Shown here one piece after another: positions 32,370 to 47,896 of a stretch of 64,000 nucleotides of DNA (positions are counted from its first letter, which is position 1; each line of letters begins with the position of its first letter). Where the stretch lies: positions 224,001 through 288,000 of the forward strand of contig CAVYBU010000008.1 of assembly GCA_963766735.1 (NCBI GenBank), read 5' to 3'. The translations under genes were made by a program, and so were the position numbers. The DNA comes from an uncultured Chloroflexia bacterium. Its GTDB lineage: Bacteria > Chloroflexota > Limnocylindria > Limnocylindrales > CSP1-4. The notes beneath the pieces are model-generated. The model did no database searches and was not told the origin of the DNA. It saw nothing but the letters and a program-made list of their open reading frames with translations.

Positions 32370-32397
32370 CCCCGGGGCGCCCGGGATCGCGTTCGAT

Positions 32398-32892
32398 TCA
32401 GGAGGTCGTCGGGGTATCGCTCGCGGTTGCTGCGACGGCTTCGAGGGCCTCCTCGGTCGCCTCGTGGGTCTCGACGGCACCGCCGAGCTCGGTGAGCCAG
32501 GCCGAGATGGCATCCACCTCGTCCGGAATGACCAGGACCCCCACGGCCGCCTTGCCCCCCTGGAGCTCGCCGCCGATGCGCTCCCTGTCTTCGGCGCTGA
32601 GCCTCAGGCCCTTGTGGTGGAAGTGCCCGAGGATGCTGCCTCCGGCCATTCCGACCAGCAGGGTCGGTGGTGCGACGACGGCCAGGAGGAGCCCGATGCC
32701 AGCGCCTTTCCCGCCGCTGCGCGCCCCGAGCTTGTGCTCCTTGAGATGGCCTGCCTCATCGACAACGAGCACCCCGATCGCGCCGAGCCAGATCCCCTTC
32801 GTTACCTCTGCCCAACTCTTGAGCGACGTGACGGCCGCGTCTGCCTCCGCCTCGTCGGCGAAGATTGCCAGCACCAGCTGCTTGTCAGCCAT
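32398..32892 (-). CDS. DUF1269-like membrane protein
   Basis: RBS GGAGG; LVLAIFADEAEA, Gly-rich hydrophobic hairpin, GKAAVGVL..LGG. Confidence 0.7.
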   Translation of the reverse strand: MADKQLVLAIFADEAEADAAVTSLKSWAEVTKGIWLGAIGVLVVDEAGHLKEHKLGARSGGKGAGIGLLLAVVAPPTLLVGMAGGSILGHFHHKGLRLSAEDRERIGGELQGGKAAVGVLVIPDEVDAISAWLTELGGAVETHEATEEALEAVAATASDTPTTS

Positions 32893-33005
32893 TCCGGGGT
32901 CCTCCTATCGGGTTCCCGCAAGGGTACTGCCCGACGCGCGCCGCCATGGCCGGCATCCAGGCTCCGCTCGACCTCGGTGATCTCGTCCAGAGTGAGCCTC
33001 GTCGG

Positions 33006-34049
33006 CTACGGGCGCTGGTCCGTGCTCGGCCGCTCCCACAGGTTCACGCCGCCCTCGACGGCGAAGCGGTCGATGGCGGATAGCTCCTCGGGCGAGAAAT
33101 CCATGTTCGAAAGGGCGGCCACGTTCTCCCGGAGCTGCGCCACCGAGCTCGCTCCGACCAGCGTGCTCGTCACCCGCGGATCGCGCAGCACCCACGCGTA
33201 GGCCATCTGGGCCAGCGACTGGCCCCGGCCCGTCGCGATCTCGTTCAACGCTCTCACCCGATCGAGGTTCTCAGGGCTCAACACCTCGCGCGGGAACGAG
33301 TCGCCGCCGGGCCGGTTCAGCCTGGAGTCGGCCGGGATGCCGTCGAGGTACTTGTCGGTCAGCAGGCCCTGGGCGAGCGCCGTGAACGCGATCATCCCGC
33401 TGCCCACGTCCTCGAGGGCATCGAGCAGCTCCGCCTCGGGCCACCGGTTGAAGAGGTTGTACGAGGGCTGGTGGATCAGCAGCGGCACGCCCTCGGCCCG
33501 GAGGAGGCCGGCCATCTCGCGGGTCTTGCCCGCGGAGTAGGACGAGATCCCGACGTACAGCGCCTTGCCCTGCCGGACGGCCGTCGCGAGGGCGCCCGCC
33601 GTTTCCTCCAGGGGCGTGTCCGCATCGAACCGGTGCGAGTAGAAGATGTCGAAGTAGTCCACCCCGACGCGGCGGAGACTCTGGTCAAGGCTCGCCAGCA
33701 CGTACTTGCGCGAGCCCCCGCCCTGCCCGTACGGGCCCGGCCACATGTCCCAGCCGGCCTTGCTGGAGATCAGCAGCTCGTCCCGGTGCGCGGCGAGGTC
33801 CTCGCGCAGGATCCGCCCGAAGTTGATCTCCGAGGACCCATATGGCGGACCGTAGTTGTTGGCGAGGTCGAAGTGCGTGATCCCGAGATCGAACGCCGCG
33901 TGGACGATGGCTCGCTGCGTGGCCATCTGGGTCGTATCGCCGAAGTTGTGCCACAGCCCCAGGGACATGACCGGCAAGCGCAGGCCGCTCCGCCCGCAGG
34001 TGCGATAGACCATCGCGTCGTAGCGGGCCGCGTCGGGTTCGTAGGTCAT
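33006..34049 (-). CDS. Aldo/keto reductase, YghZ/L-glyceraldehyde-3-phosphate reductase type
   Basis: GRSGLRLP.MSLGLWHNFG, THFDLANNYGPPYGSSE, MWPGPYG, IHQPSY. Confidence 0.93.
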   Translation of the reverse strand: MTYEPDAARYDAMVYRTCGRSGLRLPVMSLGLWHNFGDTTQMATQRAIVHAAFDLGITHFDLANNYGPPYGSSEINFGRILREDLAAHRDELLISSKAGWDMWPGPYGQGGGSRKYVLASLDQSLRRVGVDYFDIFYSHRFDADTPLEETAGALATAVRQGKALYVGISSYSAGKTREMAGLLRAEGVPLLIHQPSYNLFNRWPEAELLDALEDVGSGMIAFTALAQGLLTDKYLDGIPADSRLNRPGGDSFPREVLSPENLDRVRALNEIATGRGQSLAQMAYAWVLRDPRVTSTLVGASSVAQLRENVAALSNMDFSPEELSAIDRFAVEGGVNLWERPSTDQRP

Positions 34050-34095
34050 GAGATGTTCCTCCGGTTGCGCGCCCCGCGCCGCGACCCCCCGCCCG

Positions 34096-36690
34096 CTAGC
34101 CGCGGACGACGATGTTGACGAGCTTGCCGCCGCCCGCGTGGATGATGCGAAGTGGCTCCCTGCCGTCCAGGGCAGCCTGGACCTTGTCCCGCGAGAGGAT
34201 CACCTGCTCCAGCTCGATGTCGCTGATGCCGGCCGGGACGGTGACCTTGTCGCGCATCTTGCCGTTGATCTGGATCGGGATCTCGCGGGTGGCCTCCACC
34301 ACGGCGGTCTCGTCCACCTCCGGCCACCGCTGCACGTGGATGGACTCCCACGCCTCGCCGCGTGCCGCGGCCAGCCGCGACCACGTCTCCTCGGTGATGT
34401 GCGGTGCGGCCGGAGCCAGCATGAGCAGGAGCAGGCGCACGGCCTCGTCCCACTCGGGCAGCCCCGCGACGGACGTGCCGCGATACCGGAACAGCAGGTT
34501 CGAGAGCTCCATGAGCTTCGCGATCATCGTGTTCCAGCGGAACCCGTCGTAGTCCTCGGTCACGTCGCGCAGCGTCCGGTGGGCCGCGGCCCGCATCCGG
34601 TCGCGGGCGTCGGACTCGGACTCGCCGGGCGGCAGGGCGCCGCCGGTCTGGTCGCCGGCGTCGCGGCCGTGCGGATCCAGCGCGATGGTCCAGACGCGAT
34701 TGAGGAACTTGTTGACGCCGCCGATCCCGGTCGGGCTCCACGGGCCGCCCTGGTCCCAGGGACCCATGAACATCAGGAACAGGCGGACGGTGTCCGCGCC
34801 GTAGCGGACCACCAGCTCGTCCGGGTCCTGCACGTTGCCGCGGCTCTTGCTCATCCGCTCGCCGTCCGCGCCCAGGATCTGGCCCTGGTTGAACAGCTTG
34901 CGGAACGGCTCGGCTTCGTGGACCAGGCCCAGGTCACGCATCGCCTTGGTGAAGAACCGGCTGTAGAGCAGGTGCATCACCGCGTGCTCGGCGCCGCCCG
35001 TGTACTGGTCGACGGGGGTCCACTCGCGCACCTTGTCCACGTCTACGGGGGCATCCGTGGCATCCGGCGAGAGGTAGCGGAACCAGTACCAGGACGAGTC
35101 CATGAACGTGTCCATCGTGTCCGTCTCGCGGCGGGCGGGTTTGCCACACTGCGGGCAGTCCGCGGCCAGGAACGCCTCGTCCCGGGTCAGCGGGTTGTCG
35201 CCGCTGCCCCGGTAGTCGACGCTGTCGGGCAGCAGCACCGGCAGCTGGTCCGCCGGTACGCCCACCGGGCCGCAGTCCTCGCAGTGGATGACCGGGATCG
35301 GCGTGCCCCAGTAGCGCTGGCGGCTGATCAGCCAGTCCCGCAGCCGGTACGTGACCGCCTGGCTGCCCCGACCGTCCTTCTCGAGCCGGTTGACGATGTC
35401 GTGCCACGCGTCGGCGGCCCGGTCCCCGGTGTATTCCCCGGAGTTGACCATCACCTCGTCGATGGTGTGCTCGGTGAAGGCGCTCGTCAGCTCCTCGTCC
35501 GGATCGGCGCCCTTCGGCATCACGACCTTGACGATCGGCAGGCCGAACTTCCGGGCGAAGGCGAAGTCCCGCTCGTCGTGGGCGGGGACAGCCATGATCG
35601 CCCCCGTGCCGTACGAAGCCAGCACGTAGTCCGCGATGAAGATCGGGATCCGCTCCCCGTTGACGGGGTTGATGGCGTCCGAACCGAGGGCGACGCCGGT
35701 CTTCTCGCGGTCGGCCGACAGGCGGTCGATCTCCGTCTTGGTCGCGGCGGCGGCCACGTAGCCGTCCACCTCGGCCTTGCGATCCGGCGCGGTCAGCGCG
35801 GCGACCAGCGGATGCTCCGGGGCCAGGACCATGAACGTGGCGCCGAACAGCGTGTCCGGGCGCGTGGTGAAGACGCGCAGCTCCTCGCCACCGCCGTGGT
35901 GGGCGGAGGGGGCCGTCTCGAACACGATCTCCGCGCCGGATGACCGCCCGATCCAGTTCGTCTGCATGATCCGGACCGGATCCGGCCAGTCGAGACCGGT
36001 GAAGTCCAGCAGGTCGTCGGCGTAGTCCGTGGTGCGCAGGTACCACTGCGGCAGCTCGCGCTTCTCCACCTTCTCACCGCAGCGCCAGCACCGGCGCTCT
36101 GTGCCCTCGACCTGCTCCCGGGCCAGCGTCCCGTCGTTGGGGCACCAGTCCACCGGCGAGACCGAGCGATAGGCCAGGCCCCGCTCCAGGAACTGCGTGA
36201 ACATCCACTGGTTCCAGCGGTAGTAGCCGGGATCGCAGGTCACGACCTCGTTGTCCCACGCGAACGTGGCGCCCATCGTGCGGAACTGGACCCGCATCTT
36301 CTCGATGTTCGCCATCGTCCACTCACGCGGGTGGAAGCCGCCCTTGATCGCGGCGTTCTCGGCCGGCAGCCCGAAGGCGTCGAAGCCGATTGGCAGGAAC
36401 ACGTTGTAGCCGTGCATGCGCCGGTAGCGAGCGATCGCGTCCGTGGGCGTGACGATGTACCAGTGGCCGATGTGCAGCGCCCCCGAGGGGTACGGGTACA
36501 TCGTCAGCAGGTAGTAGCGCGGCTTGCTGCGATCGTCCAGGTCGGTGTCGTACAGACGGAGCTCGGCCCACGTCGCCTGCCACCTGGGTTCGACGGTCGT
36601 GTGGTCGTAGCGCTCGATGCGTCCCCGCTCGTCGCGGGCGACGCTGTCGGCGCCTGTGGTCGCGCTGTCGCCTGTGGTCGTCACGGTCAC
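34096..36690 (-). CDS. leuS: Leucine--tRNA ligase
   Basis: [20 protein letters not shown] editing domain, [13 protein letters not shown]. Confidence 0.99.
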
Positions 36691-36704
36691 GGACCCTTCG
36701 GATG

Positions 36705-36738
36705 AAACAAGACCCCCCGCCGGTCCCGGCGAGGGGTC
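36705..36738 (-). terminator. Intrinsic terminator-like hairpin between tRNA-Ala and leuS
   Basis: GACCCCTCGCCGG-GA-CCGGCGGGGGGTC followed by TTGTTT on the minus strand. Confidence 0.65.
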
Positions 36739-36762
36739 AGATGATCGGCGTTACCGGGGTGT

Positions 36763-36838
36763 TGGTGGAGCTACGGGGGTTCGAACCCCGGACCTTCTGA
36801 ATGCCATTCAGACGCTCTCCCAGCTGAGCTATAGCCCC
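36763..36838 (-). tRNA. tRNA-Ala(GGC)
   Basis: GGGGCTATAGCTCAGCTGGGAGAGCG; anticodon arm TCTGA-ATGGCAT-TCAGA; GTTCGA; CCA end. Confidence 0.98.
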
Positions 36839-36910
36839 ACGGTTTCGTGCTCGATCAGAGCTGCTTGCTGAGCGATGGGGAGTTTAGCATCTTCAACCGG
36901 CCGAGCCGAC

Positions 36911-36941
36911 AGCAGACGCTCTCCCAACTGAGCCATTACCC
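36911..36941 (-). pseudogene. Degenerate tRNA 5' half resembling the adjacent tRNA-Ala
   Basis: GCTCAGTTGGGAGAGCGTCTG matches the tRNA-Ala(GGC) D-arm region at 20 of 21 positions; no intact T-arm or acceptor pairing. Confidence 0.7.
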
Positions 36942-36956
36942 GTTGCCGGCTCGAGC

Positions 36957-38462
36957 TCACGGCGCCAGTCGAGGTCCGGCGCCTTCGATCTCGGCCCGGT
37001 TGCGTCTCAGCCACTCGGCCGTCCGTGGCGCCCAGCGTCCGTCCGCGTCCAGCAGCACCGCCAGGCGGCGAAGGTCCGACACCGTGTCGACGTCCGGCCA
37101 CGACTCGACGCCGGCAACCTGCCAGCCGGCCGACGCGAGGCCCTTCTCGGCGGCATCGAACGCGGTCGTGCCGCCGGTCGCACTCTCGGTGAAGGCACGT
37201 CGCAGCCTGTCAGCCAGGTTTCGCCGAAACCGGCGTCGGATCGGCGCCGGGGTTGCCCGGGGTACCTGCCTCCAACGGGCACCGACGAGGTGGTAGCCGC
37301 CGTCGTCGGCCGCGCCCAGCACCGCGCCCCGCGGGCTGCGGGCGAGCACGGCCAGGGCCGCCTCGATGCGGGCGGGCGGCAGCCCCGGAGCGTCGCCTGC
37401 GACGGCGATTGCGCGATCGGCTCCGCGGTCGAACGCCGCCAGGAAGACGTCGGCGAGAGCCGTCCCGAGCCCCGGCCCGGTCTGCACGATCGGAGTCCAG
37501 GCTGGACCGATGATCCGGACGACCGCGTCGACATCGGCGACCGACGGGAGCATGGCAACTGGAGTCAGATGCGCGGCTCGCGACGCATCGAGCGCGCCGT
37601 CGGCGGCATCGGACATGCAGGCGGTCCAGAAGGCCGTCGTTGCCTCGTCGCCGATATCCGCGGCCAGGCGCGTCTTGGCCCGACCCGGCCCGGGAGCCTT
37701 GACCATGAGGGCGAGGAGCGGGCGCGCCGCCGTCTCCGACCAGGCACGGCCGACCATGGCCCGGCCGGCCGCCACGGACGCCCGCAATGAGCCCGACACC
37801 TTGCTCGTGCCGCCCTGCCGTCGTCGGAACCGGACCGGCACCTCCCGGAACCGGATCGTCGGCTCTGCGATGACCCGTGCGACCAGCTGGGTCGTCCAAC
37901 CGTAGCCTGCATCGCTGAGATCGAGTCGGGCGAGCGTGGGAGCGCTCAGCGCCTTGAACGGCGGCAGGTCGCGGACGGTCCGTCCTGCCCGGATCGACAT
38001 GATGACGGCCACCAGGTCGTTGCCGAGCCGGGCGTGCCACGGCATGGCGCCGGTCTCGATCAGGCGACCTGGTCGTCGGCCGAACGCCACGTCCGCCCTG
38101 GACAGCGCCGAGATCAGGACCGCCAGGTCCCGGGGATCGCACGATCCGTCGCCGTCCAGGAATGCGACCACGTCATGGGCGTGGCCGGACGCAGCGGGAT
38201 CCAGCGCGCGTCCGGCGCCCGTCAGGCAGGCGCGCCCGTAGCCGCGTCGCGGCTCCTCGATGAGGAGGCCACCGGCCTCCACCGCGACGCGCCGTGTCCC
38301 ATCGCGCGATCCGCCGTCGACCACGTAGACGCAGCACGCCCCCGAGTCCCGCAGGCCGCGGACGATGGCTCCGATCGCGGTCTGCTCGTCGATGACCGGG
38401 ATGACGGCGGCGACCGTCGGAGCGCCGCCGGTGCGAGTGCCGCCGCCTCGTTCCACGCTCAT
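36957..38462 (-). CDS. Glycosyltransferase family 2 fused to a DUF2064/CofC-like domain
   Basis: VIPVIDE, VVDGGSRDGT, GYGRAC, FLDGDGS; then KAPGPGRAKTRL, Q.G.GLG, AGDAP, LG.ADDGGYHLVG, WPDVDT. Confidence 0.88.
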   Translation of the reverse strand: MSVERGGGTRTGGAPTVAAVIPVIDEQTAIGAIVRGLRDSGACCVYVVDGGSRDGTRRVAVEAGGLLIEEPRRGYGRACLTGAGRALDPAASGHAHDVVAFLDGDGSCDPRDLAVLISALSRADVAFGRRPGRLIETGAMPWHARLGNDLVAVIMSIRAGRTVRDLPPFKALSAPTLARLDLSDAGYGWTTQLVARVIAEPTIRFREVPVRFRRRQGGTSKVSGSLRASVAAGRAMVGRAWSETAARPLLALMVKAPGPGRAKTRLAADIGDEATTAFWTACMSDAADGALDASRAAHLTPVAMLPSVADVDAVVRIIGPAWTPIVQTGPGLGTALADVFLAAFDRGADRAIAVAGDAPGLPPARIEAALAVLARSPRGAVLGAADDGGYHLVGARWRQVPRATPAPIRRRFRRNLADRLRRAFTESATGGTTAFDAAEKGLASAGWQVAGVESWPDVDTVSDLRRLAVLLDADGRWAPRTAEWLRRNRAEIEGAGPRLAP

Positions 38463-40042
38463 GGCGTTGCCCCGTCCGGCTCCGGGCCCCAGACGATGAA
38501 CTCGCCGTCGTCGACCAGCACCGCTCGTTCGCCGGCCATGAGCGTGGCGAGCATCTGGTCGTGGCGACTCCGGGTCCGCGGTGTCGGCGACCATGGCAGG
38601 CGATCCATGACCACGTACGAATCCGCCGGAGGGATCGAGCTGGCGATCAGCCGCCGGACGTCGGGTCGCGCGGCGAGTGGGGCGACCAGTCCCTCGTCGG
38701 CAGCGACGATCGCATCGGCGGGAACGACGACGGCCACCAGCTTCAGCCGATCCAGCCTTGCCGGCCGGGCGGCGAACGCAGGGTCGCTCGGGTCGAACGG
38801 CGGGATCGAGCCCTGGACCCATGCTCCGACCGCCGCCGGGACGATCAGCAGGACCGCCAGCACTGGAGCGAGCCGCCGGAGCATGGACTCGCCGGCGCCA
38901 CGGCCCGGTGCCCGCTGCCGTCGCCTTCGTCGCAGCCGTCGCTCGACGATCGCCAGCACCCTCCGCCCGCCAAACCCGGCGGCAACGACCAGCGGCACCA
39001 CGAGGATCAGCGCGTACTGGAGTCGGAGGTCCGCCTGGAAGCGGTTGTCAGACAGGAGCGCGGCGGCCATCGGTGGCAGGACGAGGAGCAACCAGCGCGG
39101 ACGGACCAGGGGCAGGCCGAGCAGGGCAACGATCATTCCGGCCGCGGCCAGCCATGGTGTCGCCCGGGCGACGTGGGCAACGACCGCCGAGGTCTGCTCG
39201 AACGGTGCCCACAGGACGGCGAGCCCGCCGCCGAGCCAGGCGTAGTAGCCGTCGGTGTCGAGCCGGGCGCCGTCGCGGATGGCCGGCATCACCACGCCGA
39301 AGGCCGCGATCGTCCACGCGGCCGCCACGAGGACGAGGAACCGGCCCTGGCGGCGTGCCGAGCCGCGACCCCGGACTGCTACGGCCAGTCCGACGACGGC
39401 GACCGCGTAGCCGACGTCCTCGCGGGTCGCGAGCGCCAGCAGCGCCAGTGCCCACATCGCGCGATGGCGCTTCGTCAGGCCGGCCCAGCCGGCCAGGAGT
39501 GCCAGGCCGATCCCGGCGGTCTCGGGATGGAAGTCGGAGCGGATGACGTCCTGCATCGTGCCCCACACCGGGATCCCGATCGACAGCACCGCGGCGAGGG
39601 CCGGGCCGAACCGGCTCGGCCTGAGCAGCGCGCGGAGGAACAGGAACGCGGTCGGGATGAGCGCCGCGACGGACACGGCGTGGAGCAGGTTGAGGACGCG
39701 CACGTCCGGCCCGACGAGGCCTTCGATCACGGCCGGGACCAGGAGGATCGGCGAGAAGTGGAGACCGAGGAACGATCCCTCGTGGAAGCTCGAGATCCAC
39801 AGGCCGCGGTCCGCCACGTTCCAGATGATCTGCTGGAAGAACGCGAGGTCATACGGAGGGGCCGACAAGCCGTCGACCCGGTTGAGGAGGAGGGTCGCCA
39901 CCCACACCGCCGCCAGGATCGTCGCCAGCCCCACGAGGTGGGTGGGCGCGACGAGCGTCGTCGCCGCACGCCGCCCTCGAGCGCCAGGATCGTCGCTCGC
40001 CATCGTCGCCGCGCTCGCCCTGCGGCCGAGCCCGAGGTTCAT
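38459..40042 (-). CDS. DUF2079-like polytopic membrane protein (putative GT-C glycosyltransferase)
   Basis: YDLAFFQQIIWN, FLGLHFSP, DFHPE, TRED, QY motifs; many TM helices. Confidence 0.8.
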   Translation of the reverse strand: MNLGLGRRASAATMASDDPGARGRRAATTLVAPTHLVGLATILAAVWVATLLLNRVDGLSAPPYDLAFFQQIIWNVADRGLWISSFHEGSFLGLHFSPILLVPAVIEGLVGPDVRVLNLLHAVSVAALIPTAFLFLRALLRPSRFGPALAAVLSIGIPVWGTMQDVIRSDFHPETAGIGLALLAGWAGLTKRHRAMWALALLALATREDVGYAVAVVGLAVAVRGRGSARRQGRFLVLVAAAWTIAAFGVVMPAIRDGARLDTDGYYAWLGGGLAVLWAPFEQTSAVVAHVARATPWLAAAGMIVALLGLPLVRPRWLLLVLPPMAAALLSDNRFQADLRLQYALILVVPLVVAAGFGGRRVLAIVERRLRRRRRQRAPGRGAGESMLRRLAPVLAVLLIVPAAVGAWVQGSIPPFDPSDPAFAARPARLDRLKLVAVVVPADAIVAADEGLVAPLAARPDVRRLIASSIPPADSYVVMDRLPWSPTPRTRSRHDQMLATLMAGERAVLVDDGEFIVWGPEPDGATP

Positions 40043-40050
40043 CCGGCTTC

Positions 40051-41100
40051 CTACCGGACCGTTGACGTATCGGCGTGTCGCTCGGACCTTGTCAGGAGCG
40101 GCTTCCCCGACGCGCGATAGCGGTCGGCGATCCCTCGCGCCGCGGTCCCGATGGCGTCGACAGCCGACAGCCGCGGCGCCCACCCGAGCGCCCGTAGCGC
40201 CGAGGTCTCGAACTCGACGTAGGCCGTGTCACCCGGCCAGCCGCCGCCGCCCGCCCCGGGGCCTGCGAAGGCCAGCTCGACCGAATCGGGCCCCAGTCCC
40301 AGGGCCGCGATGACGACCTCGGCCACGCGACGAACCGTCACCGTTCCCTCGGTCCCGACGTTCAGGATCGTCATCGGGGCAGCCGGCGCTGCCCCGACTC
40401 CGCGACGGATCCCGGCGACAAGGTCGTCGACCGCGATGTACGGCTTCGCCTGCGTGCCGTCGCCCAGGATCTCGAGTCGGGTCGGGTCGCGCAGCAGCTT
40501 GACCACGAAGTCGTGGACCACGCCGTGGTTCGAGCGCGGGCCAACCGTGTTGCCGAAGCGGAACGCATGGGCTCGCCAGGCGTACAGGCTCGCGAAACCG
40601 GAGATCAGCGCCTCGCCGGCCAGCTTCGCGGCCGCATAGTGCGATTCCGGCAGCAGCGGGCCATCACCTTCACCGGTCGGGATCCGGGCGGGGCGGCCGT
40701 AGACGACCCCGGACGAGGCGAACCAGATCTCGTCGATGCCGACCGCGCGCATCGATTCGCAGACGCGCTCCGTGCCGACGATTCCACTTTCGAAGTCGCG
40801 CTCCGGGTGCGCGAAGCCCCCGGCGATGTCCGTCCCGGACGCAAGATGCACGACGCGACGGTGGCCGGACATGGCGGCTCGGAGCGTGTCCCGGTCCGTG
40901 ATGTCGCCGCGGACGAAGCTGAGGCGCGGGTCACCGTCGAACCGGGTCGCCCAGTCCGGCTCGGCGGTCGAGAGGTTGTCGAAGACGGTGACCGGCGCTC
41001 CGTCACGCAGCAGCGATGCGACCACCTCGCCGCCGATGAACCCCGCCCCGCCGGTGACGAAGGTTCGCACCGGTTCCAGGCGATCCGTCATCCGGGCCAT
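40051..41100 (-). CDS. NAD-dependent epimerase/dehydratase (extended SDR, GalE-like)
   Basis: TGGAGFIG, FASSGVVYG, YAAAK, FRFGNTVGP, GDGTQAK. Confidence 0.92.
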   Translation of the reverse strand: MARMTDRLEPVRTFVTGGAGFIGGEVVASLLRDGAPVTVFDNLSTAEPDWATRFDGDPRLSFVRGDITDRDTLRAAMSGHRRVVHLASGTDIAGGFAHPERDFESGIVGTERVCESMRAVGIDEIWFASSGVVYGRPARIPTGEGDGPLLPESHYAAAKLAGEALISGFASLYAWRAHAFRFGNTVGPRSNHGVVHDFVVKLLRDPTRLEILGDGTQAKPYIAVDDLVAGIRRGVGAAPAAPMTILNVGTEGTVTVRRVAEVVIAALGLGPDSVELAFAGPGAGGGGWPGDTAYVEFETSALRALGWAPRLSAVDAIGTAARGIADRYRASGKPLLTRSERHADTSTVR

Positions 41101-41714
41101 CGGCGACGAGTGCGCGCCATCCGAGCGTCAAGACCGTGCCAGCGACCGGCGCGGAAGGCCGCCAGGCACAGGAGCGGAATCCACTCGACCGAGTACTCGT
41201 AGATCCACTTGTCGTTCCACAGCGTCGCGAACTGGAGATGGAGCGCCATGCCCGCCGCGACCACCGCTGCGATCGGCGTGAGCAGGCCCAGGATCAGCAG
41301 GACCCCGACGACCGTCTCGAGCAGCCCGATCGAGAAGCCGAAGAACCCGAAGTTGGGCAGGACGACACCCTCGACAAAGGAGCGGTACGGCTCGATCGGA
41401 TGCTGCTGGGTGATCACCTCGTACTTGATGATCGACTCGGCACTGCGACCGCCCTCGGCGTTGATCACGAACCCCAGCGGCGTGTCAGGCCACAGGTTCG
41501 GCACCGCCGGAAGGATCTTGGCGAGGCCGTTGTGGAGATAGACCAAGCCGAAGAAGATCCGCAGCGTGGCCATTGCGCGGCCGAACCACTGGCCGTTGGC
41601 GATCGCCGCGATCGCCTCGGATTGCGCTGTGCGTGCGGTGGGTTCCACGTCTGCCCTCCCAGGAGCCGGTGAGCGTGCTGGCGCCGCCGTTCGGGCCGCC
41701 AGACGGTGCGTCAC
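41088..41714 (-). CDS. DoxX/TQO-like membrane protein
   Basis: LRIFFGLVYLHNGLAKI, ETVVGVLLILGLLT, GRWHGLD; start uncertain. Confidence 0.78.
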   Translation of the reverse strand: MTHRLAARTAAPARSPAPGRADVEPTARTAQSEAIAAIANGQWFGRAMATLRIFFGLVYLHNGLAKILPAVPNLWPDTPLGFVINAEGGRSAESIIKYEVITQQHPIEPYRSFVEGVVLPNFGFFGFSIGLLETVVGVLLILGLLTPIAAVVAAGMALHLQFATLWNDKWIYEYSVEWIPLLCLAAFRAGRWHGLDARMARTRRRWPG

Positions 41715-41778
41715 GTGATCGTGTGAAGCCGACACTAGCGATGGGTCGTGACGCTCGCGTGACGAAGTCCCGGCCCGC

Positions 41779-42912
41779 TCAACCGCAGACGAACTGGTCG
41801 AGCCGGGCCGGCCCGGCGGCAAGTATCTCATCCAGGCGCTCGCGGACCGCGACCAGGGCTTCGGCCATCGAAGCGTCCGGCGGCAGGTCGAGCCGCATGT
41901 CGGCATCGTTGGACAGCGGGTGCCAGAACCAGCCCTGCGCGTCGCAGGTCAGCTCGGGTGCGACGTCCTGGGGCCGGATCGGCTCGCCCTCCGAGGCGGC
42001 TCCGCGCAGCGCGACGGGGCGAAAGATCCGGTCGTCGGGCCGGATGCCGAGCTCGTCCGCCAGGCGGTGGAGCTGCGGGATCTCGTCGAGCGCCTCCTCG
42101 GGCAGGGACGCGGCGAGTCGAACACGCGCTCCGGCATCGAGCAGGGTCCGGATCCCGCGCATGGCACCCGCATGGGCGCCGCGCCCGCGGTGTGCGTCAT
42201 GGCGCTCCGGCGTCGCCGAATCGAGGCTCACCTGGAAGGCGATCGGCCGGCCGGCCTCGATCAGCGGCCGGATCCGCTCCCAGCGCGGCCCGCGGAGCAG
42301 CATCGCGTTCGTGAGCAGGGTCAGCGGCAGGCGATCGGTCACATAGACGATGAGATCGGCGATGTCGGGCCGGAGCGTGGGCTCGCCGCCGGTCACGAAC
42401 ACCGCGTCCATGCCGGCAGCGACGGCCTCGTCCACGAGACCGCGGATCCGCACGTCCGACAGCCGTCTGGGATCTGTCTTCGGGCCGGCAACCACGCAGC
42501 AGTAGTCGCAGGCGAGGTTGCAGTCGTAGTTGGTGTAGAGCCACAGGCGGGTGGGCATGAACGAGTCGCCCGATCGCGAGCCCGGGGTCGGCCGGGACTC
42601 GCGTTGGCCGTCCGCCGGCCAGTCTGTCCGCGCTTGACCCTTGCGCAGGTAGTGAAACGTCCAGCCGGGCCGATCTGGGTCGGGGACCACCGTCAGCAGC
42701 GCGTGACGACTGACGGCCTCGAAGGTCCGGAGCTGCTCGGTGAGCCGATCGCTCGGACTGGCGATCCGCACGATCTGGCCGTCGCGGATGTCGAGCAGCG
42801 CCCGATGGAGAGGCAACAGGAGCCCGGACTCCAGGTCGGCCGTTGGGTCCTCGACCACGGCATGGACCGGGAGCTCTCGGCCGCCACCGTAGTTGGCCGG
42901 CTCGGCGGTCAC
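41779..42912 (-). CDS. Radical SAM protein with TusA/SirA-like N-terminal domain (resembles the Rv1681/MoeX type)
   Basis: CxxxCxxC (CNLACDYC), TGGEP, LTNA, QVSLDS...HD.HRG; N-domain GQIVRIASP...L...HYLRKG. Confidence 0.88.
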   Translation of the reverse strand: MTAEPANYGGGRELPVHAVVEDPTADLESGLLLPLHRALLDIRDGQIVRIASPSDRLTEQLRTFEAVSRHALLTVVPDPDRPGWTFHYLRKGQARTDWPADGQRESRPTPGSRSGDSFMPTRLWLYTNYDCNLACDYCCVVAGPKTDPRRLSDVRIRGLVDEAVAAGMDAVFVTGGEPTLRPDIADLIVYVTDRLPLTLLTNAMLLRGPRWERIRPLIEAGRPIAFQVSLDSATPERHDAHRGRGAHAGAMRGIRTLLDAGARVRLAASLPEEALDEIPQLHRLADELGIRPDDRIFRPVALRGAASEGEPIRPQDVAPELTCDAQGWFWHPLSNDADMRLDLPPDASMAEALVAVRERLDEILAAGPARLDQFVCG

Positions 42913-43550
42913 GGTTGCTGACTGCCGACGCGGCGGAATGTCGAGTACTGGAACTGCTGGGGGAAACCCGTCGGCGTGTGATGGAGATAGCGACGGCTGT
43001 CCACCAGCCGGAAACCATCGCCGAGCTCCAGTGCAAGGGTCTCGGGTTCATAGCGCTGGACCAGCATGCCGCTGCAACGCTCGGGACCGTCGTCGGCGAA
43101 CGTGGCGACGATGGCCGTGCCCGCGTCGGGGACGGTCCGCCGGGCCAGGTCGGCGTAGCGCCGCCTGGCGGCTGGCTCGAGCAGGAAGTGGAACGCCGCA
43201 CGATCGTGCCAGATGTCGAAGGTTCCGACGTCACCGAGGTCGGATGCGTCGCCGACAATCCATTCGATCCGCTCGGCGCGGTCGCCAAGCCGGTGGCGGG
43301 CCAGCGTCAGGGCCGCGTCGGAGATGTCGAGGACGGCGATCCGCTCGAGGTCGAGGTCGAGCAGGTGATCCACGAGCCACGACGCGCCGCCGCCGACATC
43401 GATGATGCTGCGCCCCCCGCGCTCGATGGCGGCCGCCACGAGCTCACGCGAGTTGAACGGATCCGGCTCGTACCAGCCGACACCGGTCATCTCGCGCGTG
43501 GCGTAGATCCAGTCCCATGGGTTGGCCGAGGCTGGGGCATCCGAGGACAC
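42909..43550 (-). CDS. Class I SAM-dependent methyltransferase
   Basis: RBS GAGGGAG; IIDVGGGAS, VLDIS, FDIWHDRAAFHFL, GPERCSG. Confidence 0.9.
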   Translation of the reverse strand: MSSDAPASANPWDWIYATREMTGVGWYEPDPFNSRELVAAAIERGGRSIIDVGGGASWLVDHLLDLDLERIAVLDISDAALTLARHRLGDRAERIEWIVGDASDLGDVGTFDIWHDRAAFHFLLEPAARRRYADLARRTVPDAGTAIVATFADDGPERCSGMLVQRYEPETLALELGDGFRLVDSRRYLHHTPTGFPQQFQYSTFRRVGSQQP

Positions 43551-43771
43551 TGGGCACTCCCTCTTCTGAGCCGGCTCGATGCTGAGGGTAAGGATATTGG
43601 ATGACGGCTCGATGACGACCGGGCGACCCTGCCTGACGGACCCTGGCCCCTGCCTGCGATGCTCGACCGGCGTACGGGGATGACCCGGTCCCAGCGCGGC
43701 TCGGCCCGCTACGATCGTGCCATGCCGTTTGACCCCTTCGTCCGACCGCGCCGGTTCCTGCGACGGGGCGC

Positions 43772-44584
43772 GTGATCCTGCGCCGGGGCATCGCGCCCTC
43801 CGCCGCGACAGCCGCGGTCGAGACCGACGCCGTCGCACGTCTGCCCGGTGGCACGCTCCCGTACACGCTGCGCCGCTCGCCGCGGGCCACGCGGCTGCGG
43901 GTGACGATCCACCCCGAGCGCGGCGTCGTGGTCACCGTGCCCGCGGCCGCCCGCCGTGGCTGGAGCCGCCCGGAGGTCGTGGTCGAGACGTTCCTCGCCG
44001 AGCGTGAGCCATGGGTCCGCCGCCACCTCGGCCGCCAGGCGGCATCCCGCGCCCGGCTGGAGGATCGCCCCGCGCTGGACGACGGCCGAGTGATCCCGTA
44101 CCTCGGCGCCCCGCACCGAATCCGGGTCACCGAGGCACCGCCCCGAACCCGTTCCTCGCGTGTCTCGAGGATCGGCGGCGACGAGGGCGACGAGCTGCTG
44201 GTGGAGCGGGTGGCCCGGGACAGGCGCCCCACGGAGGCGATCCTCGAGGCGTGGTTCCGGCAGCGCGCCCGGGCGGCGCTGCTGGCGGCCATCGATCGCC
44301 ACGCGCTCCCGCTCGGCGTGTCCCCCTCGTCCGTCACCATCCGCGACACGACCAGCCGATGGGGGAGCTGCTCCCGGCGTGGCTCCCTCTCCTTCGGCTG
44401 GCGGCTGGTCCTGGCGCCGCCCGGAGCGCTGGACGCCGTCGCCGCCCACGAGCTCTGCCACCTGCGGGTGTTCGGGCACGCACCACACTTCTGGGCGCTG
44501 CTGGAGACGCGCGTCCCGGACTACGCGATCTGGCGCCGGTGGCTCCGCCGGCACGGACCGGAGCTCCACGCCGCGCTGGACTGA
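43772..44584 (+). CDS. YgjP/DUF45 (SprT/M48-like) zinc metalloprotein
   Basis: RRSPRATRLRVTI, SRWGSCS, HELCH..H...FW. Confidence 0.88.
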   Translation: MILRRGIAPSAATAAVETDAVARLPGGTLPYTLRRSPRATRLRVTIHPERGVVVTVPAAARRGWSRPEVVVETFLAEREPWVRRHLGRQAASRARLEDRPALDDGRVIPYLGAPHRIRVTEAPPRTRSSRVSRIGGDEGDELLVERVARDRRPTEAILEAWFRQRARAALLAAIDRHALPLGVSPSSVTIRDTTSRWGSCSRRGSLSFGWRLVLAPPGALDAVAAHELCHLRVFGHAPHFWALLETRVPDYAIWRRWLRRHGPELHAALD

Positions 44585-44691
44585 CGCCGCGAGTCCCTCC
44601 CGCGTCCACGGGGCAACAATCGGGCCGGTTCGAGCGTCACAAGACTGCCCGGATGAACCCGGGCTTCCGCGCATCCGATCCTCGAGGTCCC

Positions 44692-45351
44692 ATGTTCCCG
44701 CGCCTCGCGCCCGTCGCCGTCTCGCTCGCCCTCCTCGTCGTCGCCGCGTGCGGCGCATCGGCCGCCCCGACACGGCCGTCCATCGCGGCCGTCCCGACGG
44801 CCGTGCCCACGGTTGGGCCCCTGCCCGCCATCGATCCCGACCCACAGCCCGTCATCACGGCCTCGCCGGACGCCGGCAACGTGGGGGGCGATCGCCTCGG
44901 CCCGGAGCTGACGATCGAGATGGTCGACGAGGACACGATCGGCGCGACCATCAGCGACCCTGCTGCGAAGGCCTGGCGCCTGGTGGTGGCGGGCATCGGC
45001 GAACGAGCAGGTGACCGGTGGGAGATCCTCGTCGAGACCGGCGACACCGGACCCGACATCCTCGCCACCGAGATCAGGGACGGTCGGATCGTGGACGAGA
45101 TGGACCTGTCCGGGTTCGCGGACGGGACCGCGGCCGCCGGCGGCTGCCACGGCACGCTGCCGGTCTGCCTCGCCTCGGACGGGTTCCGCCTGCCGCAGGA
45201 CGGCGACGGCACGTTCGCGGTGCGGCTGGCGCTGCCGGAGTCCGGGACTCCGCTGACGATCACCGGCGGGACCGCGACCTGGCCCGGCGAGCCGTTCATC
45301 CTGGGTCCGTGGACCGACACGGAGCCCTTCCCCTGGAACGCTGCCGGCTGA
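44692..45351 (+). CDS. Hypothetical lipoprotein
   Basis: RBS GAGG; signal peptide with VAAC lipobox; GC-biased third codon positions. Confidence 0.7.
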   Translation: MFPRLAPVAVSLALLVVAACGASAAPTRPSIAAVPTAVPTVGPLPAIDPDPQPVITASPDAGNVGGDRLGPELTIEMVDEDTIGATISDPAAKAWRLVVAGIGERAGDRWEILVETGDTGPDILATEIRDGRIVDEMDLSGFADGTAAAGGCHGTLPVCLASDGFRLPQDGDGTFAVRLALPESGTPLTITGGTATWPGEPFILGPWTDTEPFPWNAAG

Positions 45352-45393
45352 CAACGGGCGCGCGGCCACGCCGCAACGAGAACAGGGGGGTGC

Positions 45394-45478
45394 TGGTGGG
45401 CCGGGGCAGAATCGAACTGCCACAGCCGAAGGCGAGGGTTTTACAGACCCTTGGGCTCACCACCTGCCCAACCGACCC
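45394..45478 (-). tRNA. tRNA-Tyr(GTA)
   Basis: Anticodon arm AGGGT-CTGTAAA-ACCCT; long variable arm; GTTCGA; CCA end. Confidence 0.96.
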
Positions 45479-45482
45479 ACGA

Positions 45483-45558
<76 letters not shown>

Positions 45559-45651
45559 AGGGAGCCGCACCCGACACGTCGGGTCGACCGGCCCGGAAGT
45601 GTAGCACGCGACATCGTCCCGGCCGCCCCGCTCGACCGATAGACTCGGCCG

Positions 45652-46548
45652 ATGCCCGCAGGTCTGATGGCCGGTCTGTTCACGTCCCTGGCCTGGGGCG
45701 TGGTGGACATCACTGCGGCACTGTCCGGCCACCGGGTTGGGAGCCTCCGGACGCTGGCGGCGACGCAGGTGATCAGCGTCGTGGTGCTGCTGGGGTTTAT
45801 CGCGCTCGATCCGGCGCGCCTCGGGTCGGACCCGATCACAGGGATGACGGCCGGCATGCCGATCGGGGTCCTCGCGGGCGTCGCGTACCTCGGCTACTTC
45901 ACGGCACTGAAGCTGGGTCCGCTTGCCGTCGTGAGCCCGATCATCATCGCGTACGGCGGCCTGACGGTGATCCTGGCCGTGCTGTTCCGGGGTGAGACCC
46001 TGCTGCCGCTCCAGGCGGCGGGCGCCGTGCTGGCGACGGCCGGGGTGATCCTGACCGGCGTGGCGTTCAGCCGCCGCTCGCTCCGCAGCGCACGGCTCGT
46101 GGGCCCCGGGGTGCTGATCGCGTTCGTCACGATCGGCCTGTTCGCGCTGGTGACAGTCTTCATGAGCGACCCGATCCGGGAACACGGCTGGCTGCCCGTG
46201 GCGGTCGGCTCGCGGCTCGCGAATGCGTCCTTCGTCCTGGTCCTGCTGGCGATCGGCTTGCGGGGATCGACGGCCCTGCGGCCGCTGATGCTTCCGGGCA
46301 ACCCGTGGAACCGCGCGGTGGTGCTGCTGGTGCTGGCCACGGGACTGTTCGACGTGGCCGGGTACATCGCCTTCGCGATCGGCCTGGAGGTCGCCCCGGT
46401 CTGGCTGATCGGCCTGGCAAGCTCGTTCGGTCCGGTGCTGGCAATCGGGTACGCGGTCTGGCGCATGGGTGAGCGCCTCCGGCCGACGCAGTGGGCAGGG
46501 CTGGCGCTGCTGGGCGTCGGGGTGGTGGTGCTGGCGGTCTCGGGCTAG
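45652..46548 (+). CDS. DMT/EamA family transporter
   Basis: About 10 TM helices in two repeats; ALKLGPLAVVSP, GERL...QWAG. Confidence 0.88.
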   Translation: MPAGLMAGLFTSLAWGVVDITAALSGHRVGSLRTLAATQVISVVVLLGFIALDPARLGSDPITGMTAGMPIGVLAGVAYLGYFTALKLGPLAVVSPIIIAYGGLTVILAVLFRGETLLPLQAAGAVLATAGVILTGVAFSRRSLRSARLVGPGVLIAFVTIGLFALVTVFMSDPIREHGWLPVAVGSRLANASFVLVLLAIGLRGSTALRPLMLPGNPWNRAVVLLVLATGLFDVAGYIAFAIGLEVAPVWLIGLASSFGPVLAIGYAVWRMGERLRPTQWAGLALLGVGVVVLAVSG

Positions 46549-46586
46549 GGGTCGTTCGGGCGCCGGACAGGGTGGATCCTGACCCC

Positions 46587-46614
46587 TTGACGACTAGAAC
46601 ATTCGTTCTATTAT
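46587..46614 (+). promoter_or_regulatory. Sigma-70 promoter with overlapping LexA (SOS) box
   Basis: TTGACG-N16-TATTAT; TAGAAC-ATTC-GTTCTA palindrome at 46595-46610. Confidence 0.88.
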
Positions 46615-46624
46615 TGGACGTCCG

Positions 46625-47896
46625 ATGGCTCGCACATCCGACGTCTCCGAGGCTCTCGCCGCGCTCCAGGCACGCTGGGGTGCGGCCGCTCCACGCCGCG
46701 GCAGCGAGCTCGTGGGGATGATCGAAGGAGCGCTTGCCCGCGCGCCGCTGCCGCTCGAGGAGCCGGTGGGTGAAGAGGCCTCAGCCCGCGCCCCTGCCCC
46801 TGCGTCCGCGCCGTTCACCCCGGCCACGCGAACCCGGCCCGGTGTGCCCGCCGCGGACCTGGACGGGCGCATCGTCTCCACCGGGTTCGCCGCACTGGAC
46901 GCGGTCCTTGGCACGGGGGGGCTGCCGCGCTCCGCCACGGTCGTGCTTCGCGGGGGCGTGTCCTCGGGCAAGACCACGGTGGCGCTGCGGGCGGTCGCAG
47001 AGGCTCAGGCGGGCGGGGCGATCGTCGCGTGGCTGGACCTCGCACGGGCGTTCGACCCCGTGGAGGCCGTCGCCCGCGGGATCAACCCGGAGTGGCTCGT
47101 GGTGCTGACGCCGGCGGATATCGAGGAGGCCCTCGCGCTGGCCGGCTCGTTGCTCGCAGCCCGGACCGTGGACCTGCTGGTGCTGGACCTGCCGGATGGG
47201 CGAGACCCCGCGGTCGCCGGGAAGCGAGTGGGGGACCGGCTGGGCCGGCTCGCGGCGCTGGCCAGGCGCGCAGGGACGCTGGTCGTGGTGCTGGAGCCGG
47301 TGGCGCTGGGCCGCACGCTGGCGGCGGCCGTGGAGGAGGCGAGCGGCCTGCGGCTGGAGTTGCGGCGATCGGGCTGGATCCGCCTGGGGCGGGACGTGGT
47401 GGGGCAGCGCAGCGAGGCCACCGTCGCGCGCAACCGCTACGGGCCGCCCGGCCGTCGCGCCGACCTCGAGATCCTGTACGCGGAGGGCGGCCCAAGGGAC
47501 GCCTGCCTGCGCCGGCCCGGGCTCCTGGATGGGCTCATCGCGCCGGCCGCACCACCGGGGCTTGCCGTCGCCTCACCGCTCTTCAGAGACCTGAAAGGCC
47601 CCCCTCCATCGGCTGATACCCATGCGCCTGCTGTACCTGCTCTGGCCTCACCTGCCCCTCCGCCTGGCGAGGGTCCGCCTGGAGACGCCCCCGGGGGGTC
47701 GCACCTCCCCGGGGGACGGCACCACCTCCGGCTCCTGGCCTCACGGCCCGATCATCCTCGGCGGACAGCCCTGGATGGACGGAACGGTCGTGGACGCGGA
47801 TCCGCTCGCACGGGCACTCGGCGTCCGGCGGGGGATCCCGCTCGGGACCGCCCACCGGCTGGCGCCCGAGGCAACCTTCCTCGACCTCGCGCCTGA
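46625..47896 (+). CDS. imuA: ImuA-like RecA-family protein (tail overlaps imuB)
   Basis: STGFAALDAVLGTGGLP, Walker A GGVSSGKT, AWLD, LLVLD; SOS box upstream; precedes imuB. Confidence 0.78.
   Translation: MARTSDVSEALAALQARWGAAAPRRGSELVGMIEGALARAPLPLEEPVGEEASARAPAPASAPFTPATRTRPGVPAADLDGRIVSTGFAALDAVLGTGGLPRSATVVLRGGVSSGKTTVALRAVAEAQAGGAIVAWLDLARAFDPVEAVARGINPEWLVVLTPADIEEALALAGSLLAARTVDLLVLDLPDGRDPAVAGKRVGDRLGRLAALARRAGTLVVVLEPVALGRTLAAAVEEASGLRLELRRSGWIRLGRDVVGQRSEATVARNRYGPPGRRADLEILYAEGGPRDACLRRPGLLDGLIAPAAPPGLAVASPLFRDLKGPPPSADTHAPAVPALASPAPPPGEGPPGDAPGGSHLPGGRHHLRLLASRPDHPRRTALDGRNGRGRGSARTGTRRPAGDPARDRPPAGARGNLPRPRA

Follow-up and report, generated by a model that had tools for sequence, protein, structure and literature searches.

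Within the 64,000-nt stretch of genome from an uncultured soil Chloroflexota bacterium analyzed here (the window, whose numbering is used for all coordinates), six minus-strand genes follow one another head to tail from position 36957 to 43550. They encode a methyltransferase (MT), a radical S-adenosylmethionine (SAM) protein with an N-terminal TusA-like domain, a DoxX-type membrane protein, a GalE-like short-chain dehydrogenase/reductase (SDR), a DUF2079 membrane protein, and a fusion of a family 2 glycosyltransferase (GT2) with DUF2064. The cluster is a real, conserved, accessory operon. Its domain families and their linkage suggest a probable function in capping with a lipid-carried sugar, by a pathway of the methylthioxylose (MTX) type to which a radical SAM module has been added; the product is a prediction. 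A first-pass annotation of this DNA had proposed an undescribed biosynthetic operon. That description holds for radical SAM, MT, and DoxX, which form a new module added to an MTX-type architecture, but not for the GT2, DUF2064, SDR, and GT-C glycosyltransferase part, which the mycobacterial MTX pathway already covers. The genes and adjoining elements are:

42909-43550, minus strand: methyltransferase (MT), 213 aa; GTG start with a Shine-Dalgarno (SD)-like purine run 6 nt upstream.
41779-42912, minus strand: radical SAM protein (TusA-like::radical SAM), 377 aa.
41649-41778, minus strand: intergenic gap between radical SAM and DoxX, 130 nt (205 nt if DoxX starts at 41573).
41088-41648, minus strand: DoxX/DoxD-family small integral membrane protein, 186 aa; GTG start with an SD-like run upstream (the alternative start, ATG 41573, gives 161 aa).
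40051-41100 (or from 41091), minus strand: extended SDR, GalE-like NAD-dependent sugar-nucleotide epimerase/dehydratase, 349 aa.
38459-40042, minus strand: DUF2079 polytopic membrane protein, 527 aa.
36957-38462, minus strand: GT2::DUF2064 fusion, 501 aa; GT2 half ~37728-38462, DUF2064 half 36957 to ~37727.
36763-36838, minus strand: tRNA-Ala(GGC) (ARAGORN; Rfam tRNA 64.8 bits).
36711-36738, minus strand: terminator-like hairpin 3′ of tRNA-Ala(GGC), the sole one detected in 36500-44100 by a terminator scan.

The first-pass annotation had described six co-oriented genes next to a tRNA with overlaps at 42909-42912, 41088-41100, and 38459-38462. All of these are present in the sequence, but the 130-nt gap between radical SAM and DoxX had gone unmentioned. 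MT and radical SAM share a GTGA overlap (42912/42909) and are translationally coupled; the MT start is backed by its SD-like run and by homologues that align from residue 1. DoxX and SDR meet in an ATGA (41091/41088) unless SDR starts at ATG 41100, 8 nt separate SDR from DUF2079, and DUF2079 runs into the fusion gene through another ATGA (38462/38459). The tRNA and the hairpin likely form the 3′ end of the transcription unit. A scan of 36500-44100 for sigma-70-like promoters returned none, with a consensus that may not suit this phylum. The G+C content of the window is ~71%.

The domain calls made at first pass were confirmed by Pfam for all six genes. In the fusion gene, a single ORF matches both Glycos_transf_2 (48.3 bits) and DUF2064 (52.8 bits, cut-off 25.8), and both domains are present in 118 of the 120 best homologues listed. 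The NCBIfam matches of the GT2 half are AglJ (87.9 bits), PpgS (34.7 bits), and a dolichyl-phosphate hexose transferase, so that it resembles a polyprenyl-phosphate sugar synthase, in keeping with the loading of a polyprenyl carrier envisaged at first pass. The DUF2064 half matches PDB entry 3cgx and looks like a CofC/MobA-type nucleotidyltransferase. A second DUF2064-like match in the same genome (contig C18) was set aside, as it is CofC beside CofD, of F420 biosynthesis. The SDR matches Pfam Epimerase (140.9 bits) and, below its cut-off of 262, the galE model TIGR01179 (113.8 bits); its translation shows a glycine-rich NAD motif and a YxxxK motif.

DUF2079 (Pfam DUF2079, 107.6 bits) had no match at E ≤ 1 in a sequence search against the PDB, and a fold search was therefore needed. 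An AF2 model from a 44-sequence alignment (pLDDT 81.8, pTM 0.85) was compared with the PDB by Foldseek, and GT-C enzymes filled the top 36 ranks (listed as 1-36, with rank 23 not printed), the first match of another kind being an ABC transporter at rank 37. ArnT (5f15, 1.4e-5) came top, and ALG12, AglB, STT3, AftA, PglB, and AftD were also matched, with TM-scores of 0.4-0.48. Judged by this model, DUF2079 has the polytopic GT-C glycosyltransferase fold that the first-pass annotation had predicted for it. D65, E208, and D209 are invariant in the 44 sequences, their outer-loop location being read from the model alone.

Gene fusions found among homologues connect parts of the cluster. GT2::DUF2064::MT triple fusions occur in P0312 (7 member sequences) and P0294, and an SDR::DUF2079 fusion occurs in P0019; these are metagenome gene calls, and a lost stop codon is possible for any single one. 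Taken with the GT2::DUF2064 and TusA-like::radical SAM fusions, they argue that the parts are tied into one process.

The best NCBIfam match of the radical SAM protein (Pfam Radical_SAM, 78.6 bits) is the Rv1681 family NF049973. The match covers positions 2-325 of the 326-position model at 276.9 bits, and the two-domain layout is shared, including the N-terminal TusA-like domain. This supports the Rv1681-type assignment of the first-pass annotation, although the score lies under the cut-off of 380, which makes the protein a representative of a sister group and not a member by the NCBI rule. The TusA-like domain spans residues ~15-95 (window ~42628-42870), a disordered linker residues 102-112, and the core residues ~120-377. 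Comparison of the N-terminal domain with stand-alone TusA proteins encoded in more distant clusters gave an hhalign probability of 94.8% (E 5.4e-8), and Pfam TusA (PF01206) matched 1 of 15 aligned members (1.3e-4). In the AF2 model (pLDDT 88) the N-terminus is arranged beta-alpha-beta-alpha-beta-beta, matching TusA; by alignment and model alike, this domain has a TusA fold. Residues 1-120 hold no cysteine in 14 Chloroflexota-type sequences (all aligned rows except L022) and carry an invariant Ser-Gly-Leu motif.

The CX3CX2C motif of the core (C131/C135/C138) is conserved in 37 of 37 sequences, compared with 25/37 for C139, 20/37 for C323, and 25/37 for C376, and no Pfam SPASM match was found. 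As the three motif cysteines alone are universal, no auxiliary Fe-S cluster is expected. Conserved arginines point to an anionic substrate. By sequence, the solved structures nearest to it are BlsE (1.7e-14) and DesII (2e-6), and the top Foldseek matches of the model were SkfB, BlsE, SuiB, DesII, viperin-like enzymes, anSME, and MoaA. The family is small, with 49 representatives at E ≤ 1e-30 among 1.84 billion; at E ≤ 1e-10, NF049973-like proteins number 1,415 representatives.

The MT is a class I SAM-dependent methyltransferase, as judged from its sequence matches. It matches Pfam Methyltransf_25 (35.1 bits); against NCBIfam it had no ArsM match and scored weakly with UbiE (20.6 bits) and Hen1 (18.6 bits) alone. 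A PDB search gave one weak match (Rv0560c, 1.1e-3), and in the ESM Atlas the protein falls in generic class I methyltransferase clusters alone. DoxX matches Pfam DoxD (35.7 bits) and DoxX (35.4 bits). A complex prediction for radical SAM and DoxX (score 0.00, mark 0.32, run without controls) gave no evidence either way.

A radical SAM scan with one genome per species found 80 loci (L001-L080), nearly all in Chloroflexota metagenome-assembled genomes (MAGs); 21 of these, with a radical SAM of at least 60% identity, are called near loci here, and the other 59 distant loci. Those most similar to the window (60-87% identity) carry the labels Limnocylindrales, Limnocylindria, or ‘Chloroflexia’. Among the near loci, tblastn detected DUF2064 in 18, DoxX in 17, MT and GT2 in 16 each, SDR in 15, and DUF2079 in 14. 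Most misses fall at contig ends (L004, L008, L012, L015, L018, L021), and MT is missing from L010 and L021. This co-occurrence of the six genes is more than chance. GT2 and DUF2064 are contiguous in 16 of the 16 near loci having both, and MT, where found, lies directly upstream of radical SAM except in L010, L019-L021, and at contig ends. The MT-radical SAM block and the DoxX-SDR-DUF2079-GT2::DUF2064 block have swapped places or been inverted with respect to each other in L006, L011, L014, L016, L017, L004, and L008, and remain neighbours in every rearrangement seen.

Within its own lineage the cluster is patchy. Among 201 genomes drawn from the class, the window’s genome was the only one with the radical SAM at E ≤ 1e-60, and the 7 others of the same genus all lacked it; of 24 same-genus genomes in a further draw, 6 matched DUF2064 strongly. 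This patchiness, together with differing flanks, marks the cluster as an accessory trait. One MAG carries two copies (L007 and L024); the L024 copy gave partial matches alone, to radical SAM (45% identity, residues 71-377), SDR, and DUF2064, and may be decaying or poorly assembled. In L002:11131-12876 and L012:818-2446, a TMEM260/PMT_2-like GT-C gene lies on the opposite strand between radical SAM and DoxX.

The distant loci belong to Anaerolineae, Caldilineae, and others, and their similarity to the window radical SAM is 36-46% identity over residues ~122-377 only. GT2 or DUF2064 occurs within ~10 kb in 41 of the 59, and both in 35. The short Rv1681-like radical SAM gene sits there in a larger co-directional cluster, whose other components were found by clustering 1,205 ORFs and scanning the representatives against Pfam and NCBIfam:

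Distant clusters: second, SPASM radical SAM, tungsten-cofactor-maturase-like (139 bits against a cut-off of 380).
Distant clusters: TusA, 8 members.
Distant clusters: DsrE, 16 loci.
Distant clusters: acyl-CoA-dehydrogenase-like (ACAD) gene, 13 loci, as an alternative to TusA/DsrE, with a DinB gene sometimes adjoining.
Distant clusters: ArsM-like methyltransferase without the arsenite-binding cysteine pairs, 9.
Distant clusters: NUDIX hydrolase, 18 loci.
ORF clustering: DoxD-like membrane protein, 36 loci.
Distant clusters: two GT87-like GT-C proteins, 22 and 20 loci.

A GDSL-like protein in some loci, DUF2064, and GT2 complete the set, and DUF2079 takes the place of the GT87-like proteins in L036, L029, and L080. 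The ArsM-like gene (Methyltransf_31) scores 155 bits with NF008823, under the cut-off of 263. In a 10- to 12-gene version seen in Anaerolineae and Caldilineae (L047:7007-18808, L058:9033-18105, L073:9962-16181), either TusA and DsrE or ACAD and DinB accompany the second SPASM radical SAM, ArsM-like MT, NUDIX, DoxD, GDSL, two GT87-like proteins, DUF2064, and GT2. The DUF2064 protein of L047 passes TIGR04282 (181.3 against 134), so NCBI rules would name it an arsenosugar enzyme, whereas the adjoining radical SAM is not ArsS-like (45.3 against 300).

The core of radical SAM, DoxX-like, GT2, and DUF2064 genes is also present in other classes of Chloroflexota and in Actinomycetota. Of 401 Actinomycetota genomes sampled, 17 had the radical SAM (E ≤ 1e-60), and two of these pass the NF049973 cut-off. 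DUF2064 was found in 16 of these 17 genomes and in 94 of the 384 without the radical SAM, that is, in 110 of 401 overall (Fisher p = 5.8e-9, related genomes not being independent); in the one exception, the radical SAM is on a 6-kb contig. These tallies include genomes flagged unpublished (G001, G124, and G152 among the 17; G243, G022, G086, G322, and G178 among the 110). Fifteen Actinomycetota neighbourhoods (14 loci and L023) had DoxX-like genes in 10, GT2 with DUF2064 in 8, SDR in 6, ACAD-like genes in 5, an MTA phosphorylase (MTAP) or PNP-like gene in 4, NUDIX in 3, GT87 in 2, and an MT of the window type (41% identity) in 1. Bona fide NF049973 members in G247 (537 bits) and G001 (495.8 bits) sit with DoxD-like genes, and in G001 (L023, flagged unpublished) this cut-off-passing gene is clustered with GT2, DUF2064, DoxD, SDR, and ACAD. 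As the first-pass annotation expected, the genes co-occur in other genomes, in near Chloroflexota loci as well as in Actinomycetota, and the radical SAM was not found to fall in a characterized family with this same operon.

Some Actinomycetota loci differ in their domain make-up or surroundings. In L100:9496-11166, L101:8394-10421, and L102:9594-11438, a calcineurin-like metallophosphoesterase domain is fused N-terminally to the Rv1681-like radical SAM, replacing the TusA-like domain. L099 and L118 (G247:C1:3828300-3868190) have a mycobacterium-like men-gene synteny, with the Rv1681-family gene beside ACAD-like and DoxD-like genes. The ACAD-like gene recurs in the 13 Chloroflexota and 5 Actinomycetota loci already listed; that it encodes a flavin-dependent oxygenase of the sugar’s substituent is speculation.

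The MTX-type reading draws in part on a comparison with G247, a 5.09-Mb Actinomycetota genome with the gene order menA, MTAP (480 bits against a cut-off of 306), GalE-like SDR, DUF7937, GT2, DUF2064, a convergent 454-aa membrane ORF, and menE. This is the order of Rv0534c-Rv0542c in M. tuberculosis, and the G247 locus is called MTX-type from this synteny. The best match of the window GT2 half in G247 is the GT2 adjacent to DUF2064 (38% identity, 86.7 bits, with the runner-up at 45.1 bits), and so it is in another genome, G162 (40% identity, 103.3 bits, runner-up 64.8 bits). The DUF2064 halves of the window and G247 share 32% identity and score 88.8 and 113.8 bits with TIGR04282, both under its cut-off. 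The two SDRs share 28% identity, a pairwise figure only, and match at the level of the Epimerase family.

In the MTX model of Angala et al. 2017, the MTA phosphorylase Rv0535 reportedly supplies methylthioribose-1-phosphate, Rv0540 (DUF2064) is said to make the nucleotide sugar, and Rv0536 (GalE3) to epimerize it. Transferred to the window, this model and established knowledge of CofC-like nucleotidyltransferases, GalE-type SDRs, GT2 enzymes of the Dpm1/ArnC type, and GT-C enzymes yield a four-step proposal. The DUF2064 half, with its CofC/MobA-like fold, would activate a sugar-1-phosphate to an NDP-sugar, the sugar probably being a 5-substituted 5-deoxypentose that stems from an adenosine compound (an MTA phosphorylase is encoded elsewhere in the genome). 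The GalE-like SDR would then epimerize the NDP-sugar, and the GT2 half would move the sugar onto polyprenyl phosphate. After the lipid-linked sugar has been flipped, the DUF2079 GT-C enzyme would move it to an extracytoplasmic acceptor in the envelope. MT and the TusA-like::radical SAM protein, together with DoxX, may make or tailor an unusual substituent of the sugar, and DoxX may hold the radical SAM protein at the membrane or handle electrons.

Several observations weigh against this proposal. The window DUF2064 and radical SAM are both under their NCBIfam cut-offs, and the TusA-like domain is without the catalytic, persulfide-carrying cysteine. No MTAP gene was found in the window cluster, and neither an MTAP nor a PNP-like gene in 79 other loci of L001-L080 (all but L023, from Actinomycetota). 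DUF2079 aligned to the ORF at the MtxT position of G247 with an hhalign probability of 0.3%, so the DUF2079 transferase is not an orthologue of that ORF; the lack of homology at the sequence level fits a different acceptor. The own-genome MTAP gene is on C18 (287.9 bits against a cut-off of 274.85), in G000:C18:26550-30612, ~1-3 kb from cofD and cofC of F420 biosynthesis, a closeness that is probably coincidental.

Four further points against the single pathway also speak for two unrelated neighbouring units, in which the glycosyltransferase block would make an ordinary lipid-linked sugar, and MT, radical SAM, and DoxX would modify a quinone, lipid, or cofactor. The two blocks are separated by the 130-nt gap; they invert and reorder independently of each other; L019 and L020 have radical SAM and DoxX alone of the six genes, with an ACAD-like gene and no glycosyltransferase genes in the DNA examined; and in G247 the Rv1681-family gene lies with ACAD and DoxD, 18 kb from the MTX-type GT2 and DUF2064 genes. 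DoxD-family proteins are, moreover, quinone-linked in archaeal sulfur oxidation (PMC6930017). However, the adjacency of the blocks is kept through all rearrangements of the near loci, DUF2064 accompanies the radical SAM in 16 of 17 Actinomycetota genomes while 110 of all 401 have it, and the triple fusions join MT to GT2 and DUF2064. On this balance two separate units appear unlikely.

The role of MT, radical SAM, and DoxX may be tailoring of the activated sugar, de novo formation of a 5′-substituted adenosine or pentose, or an unrelated membrane function. The second option follows from the TusA and DsrE genes, along with the NUDIX, phosphoesterase, and MTAP genes, of related clusters. In its fullest form, the Rv1681-like radical SAM, a sulfur relay, and MT would build the 5′-substituent of an adenosine-derived pentose de novo and feed it into capping by DUF2064, GT2, and GT-C; sulfur might capture the 5′-deoxyadenosyl radical (compare the C-As bond formed by ArsS), with S-methylation to follow. 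The relay would consist of stand-alone TusA and DsrE in the Anaerolineae clusters, and of the fused, degenerate TusA-like domain in the window. Such a route could serve organisms without a polyamine-derived supply of MTA, and no speE (spermidine synthase) was found in the window’s genome, which is 93.85% complete (best score 19.5 bits). We regard this version as conceivable, yet decidedly doubtful. If it were true, the pairing of DUF2064 with GT2 would serve generally to activate and transfer 5-substituted pentoses derived from SAM, and envelope glycan capping would be the process to which the Rv1681 family, which has long carried a molybdopterin-enzyme annotation, belongs.

A system for arsenosugars, organoarsenicals, or other metalloid compounds, of the ArsS/ArsM/TIGR04282/TIGR04283 kind, has the same parts list of radical SAM, methyltransferase, DUF2064, and GT2, and the distant loci with a TIGR04282-passing DUF2064 and an ArsM-like gene lend it some support. 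In the window, the radical SAM scores 44.7 with ArsS (TIGR04167, cut-off 300), the fusion scores 88.8 with TIGR04282 (cut-off 134) and 28.1 with TIGR04283 (cut-off 182), and MT has no ArsM match. The radical SAM is also nearer to SPASM-type enzymes, BlsE, and DesII than to ArsS, and no ars genes were found among the ORFs annotated in window 32293-47896. These results agree with the first-pass view that the methyltransferase is not ArsM, the radical SAM not ArsS, and the product probably no classic arsenosugar, and they make a metalloid system very improbable. Another reading makes the radical SAM an enzyme of the molybdenum cofactor, or of some other cofactor, that lies by accident beside an S-layer or protein glycosylation unit (compare the old annotation of Rv1681 as ‘MoeX’). 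It draws on weak MoaA similarity (TIGR02666, 56.2 bits) and on AglJ as the best equivalog-type match of the GT2 half, and is scarcely credible given a separate true MoaA in the genome (361.6 bits against 284), linkage to DUF2064 and GT2 across two phyla, and a patchiness within the genus unlike that of a core cofactor gene. A radical SAM and PNP-like gene pair on C30 of the same genome was examined and rejected, as it consists of MoaA and a purine nucleoside phosphorylase.

The flanking genes are housekeeping or unrelated ones (LeuRS, an aldo-keto reductase, a divergent HExxH protein), followed farther out by two tRNAs, an EamA-like protein, and an ImuA/RecA-like protein. ORF families common to the flanks of several loci reach at most 3-6 members, and the flanks are therefore not part of the unit. 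The HExxH protein (270 aa; 43772-44584, plus strand) is divergent from MT across a common intergenic region of ~220 nt, and it had no Pfam or NCBIfam match at the thresholds applied. A tRNA-Tyr and tRNA-Ala(CGC) pair lies at 45394-45558 (minus strand), and a 423-aa ORF at 46625-47896 (plus strand) has partial RecA/ImuA similarity (RecA 102.5 bits, cut-off 325), a region that is possibly a translesion-synthesis cassette. On the minus strand at ~36900-36940, between the fusion stop and the tRNA, ~30 nt resemble the 5′ half (acceptor and D-arm) of tRNA-Ala; Rfam found nothing there at E ≤ 1, and with the patchy distribution of the cluster this stretch could be the scar of an insertion at the tRNA. 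Outside the locus, window 26001-28000 has a G+C peak of 0.762, against a background of ~0.71, and an AT skew of 0.19. In a metatranscriptome run (X1), 6% of sampled words were present, and 14 short contigs matched the window at 90-100% likeness; the eight pieces listed map to the fusion gene, SDR, just upstream of the DoxX start, radical SAM, and MT. None of the contigs spans two genes and DUF2079 is uncovered; as DNA carry-over is possible, this run permits no conclusion on transcription or operon structure.

No role has been assigned to DUF2064, DUF2079, or the Rv1681 family of radical SAM proteins, all of them widespread; DUF2064, for one, occurs in the 110 Actinomycetota genomes counted above. 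A literature search found no paper naming DUF2064 or DUF2079, no work linking Rv1681 or radical SAM enzymes to MTX, and, among the papers listed, none joining ArsS, arsenosugars, or radical SAM with a glycosyltransferase; the listed mentions of Rv1681 concern tuberculosis diagnostics, biomarkers, and vaccines. Placing the three families in one pathway gives each a candidate job. DUF2064 could act as a nucleotidyltransferase and DUF2079 as a GT-C transferase, and the radical SAM family, which DUF2064 almost always accompanies, could make or tailor the sugar. The placement also suggests that rare thio- or deoxy-pentose caps may reach well past the mycobacteria, to the cell envelopes of Chloroflexota and Actinomycetota from soil, and offers a rationale for re-annotating proteins that NCBI models label ‘arsenosugar biosynthesis glycosyltransferase’, as in the case of the L047 DUF2064 protein.

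Among known systems, the ArsS/ArsM system shares with the window cluster a radical SAM enzyme, a methyltransferase, a DUF2064-type protein, and a GT2, and its logic, from a SAM-derived 5′-substituted adenosine to an activated pentose, may be the same. However, its four defining models are under cut-off or unmatched in the window, the radical SAM belongs to another family, and MT is not ArsM-like. BlsE (a cytosylglucuronate decarboxylase, 7voc/7vob) and DesII (8hzv), both radical SAM enzymes of sugar nucleotides, are among the top fold matches of the window radical SAM but have just 17-22% identity to it, and since the peptide maturases SkfB and SuiB score equally, the substrate class is not readable from this likeness. 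In M. tuberculosis, DoxX (Rv3005c), SseA, and SodA are described as a membrane-associated oxidoreductase complex (PMC6930017). The window cluster likewise sets a DoxX-family membrane protein beside a soluble protein with a sulfur or thiol connection, here the TusA-like domain with its sulfur-carrier fold; it differs in having neither SseA nor SodA, and binding between DoxX and the radical SAM protein is a prediction.

Two-step glycosylation through a lipid carrier, by GT2 and GT-C pairs, is well established. In the ArnC/ArnT and PpgS/Rv3779 pairs, as proposed for the window cluster, polyprenyl phosphate is loaded in the cytoplasm by a GT2, and a GT-C enzyme then hands the sugar on at the outer side of the membrane. 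The top fold match of DUF2079 is ArnT, and PpgS and ArnC models match the GT2 half or its relatives. The families are nevertheless others, and the window nucleotidyltransferase domain is fused to GT2. In the MTX pathway, whose product is 5-deoxy-5-methylthio-xylofuranose on a lipoglycan, the lipid-linked MTX donor comes from MtxS (Rv0539), and MtxT (Rv0541c) passes MTX on to lipoarabinomannan (LAM) (PMC12088412, PMC8780516, PMC8081860); thioether-selective oxaziridine labelling has been applied to MTX (PMC12088412). The window cluster and this pathway have in common a GT2 polyprenyl-phosphate sugar synthase beside DUF2064, a GT-C enzyme, and, at the level of the family, a GalE-like SDR, and the match profiles to the models used are the same for the window and for the MTX-type locus of G247. 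In the window cluster, however, GT2 and DUF2064 are fused, the GT-C enzyme is DUF2079, without detectable similarity to the ORF at the MtxT position, and an MTA phosphorylase gene is lacking. LAM is not expected in a Chloroflexota host, so the acceptor must differ, and to the shared architecture the window cluster adds MT, the TusA-like::radical SAM protein, and DoxX.

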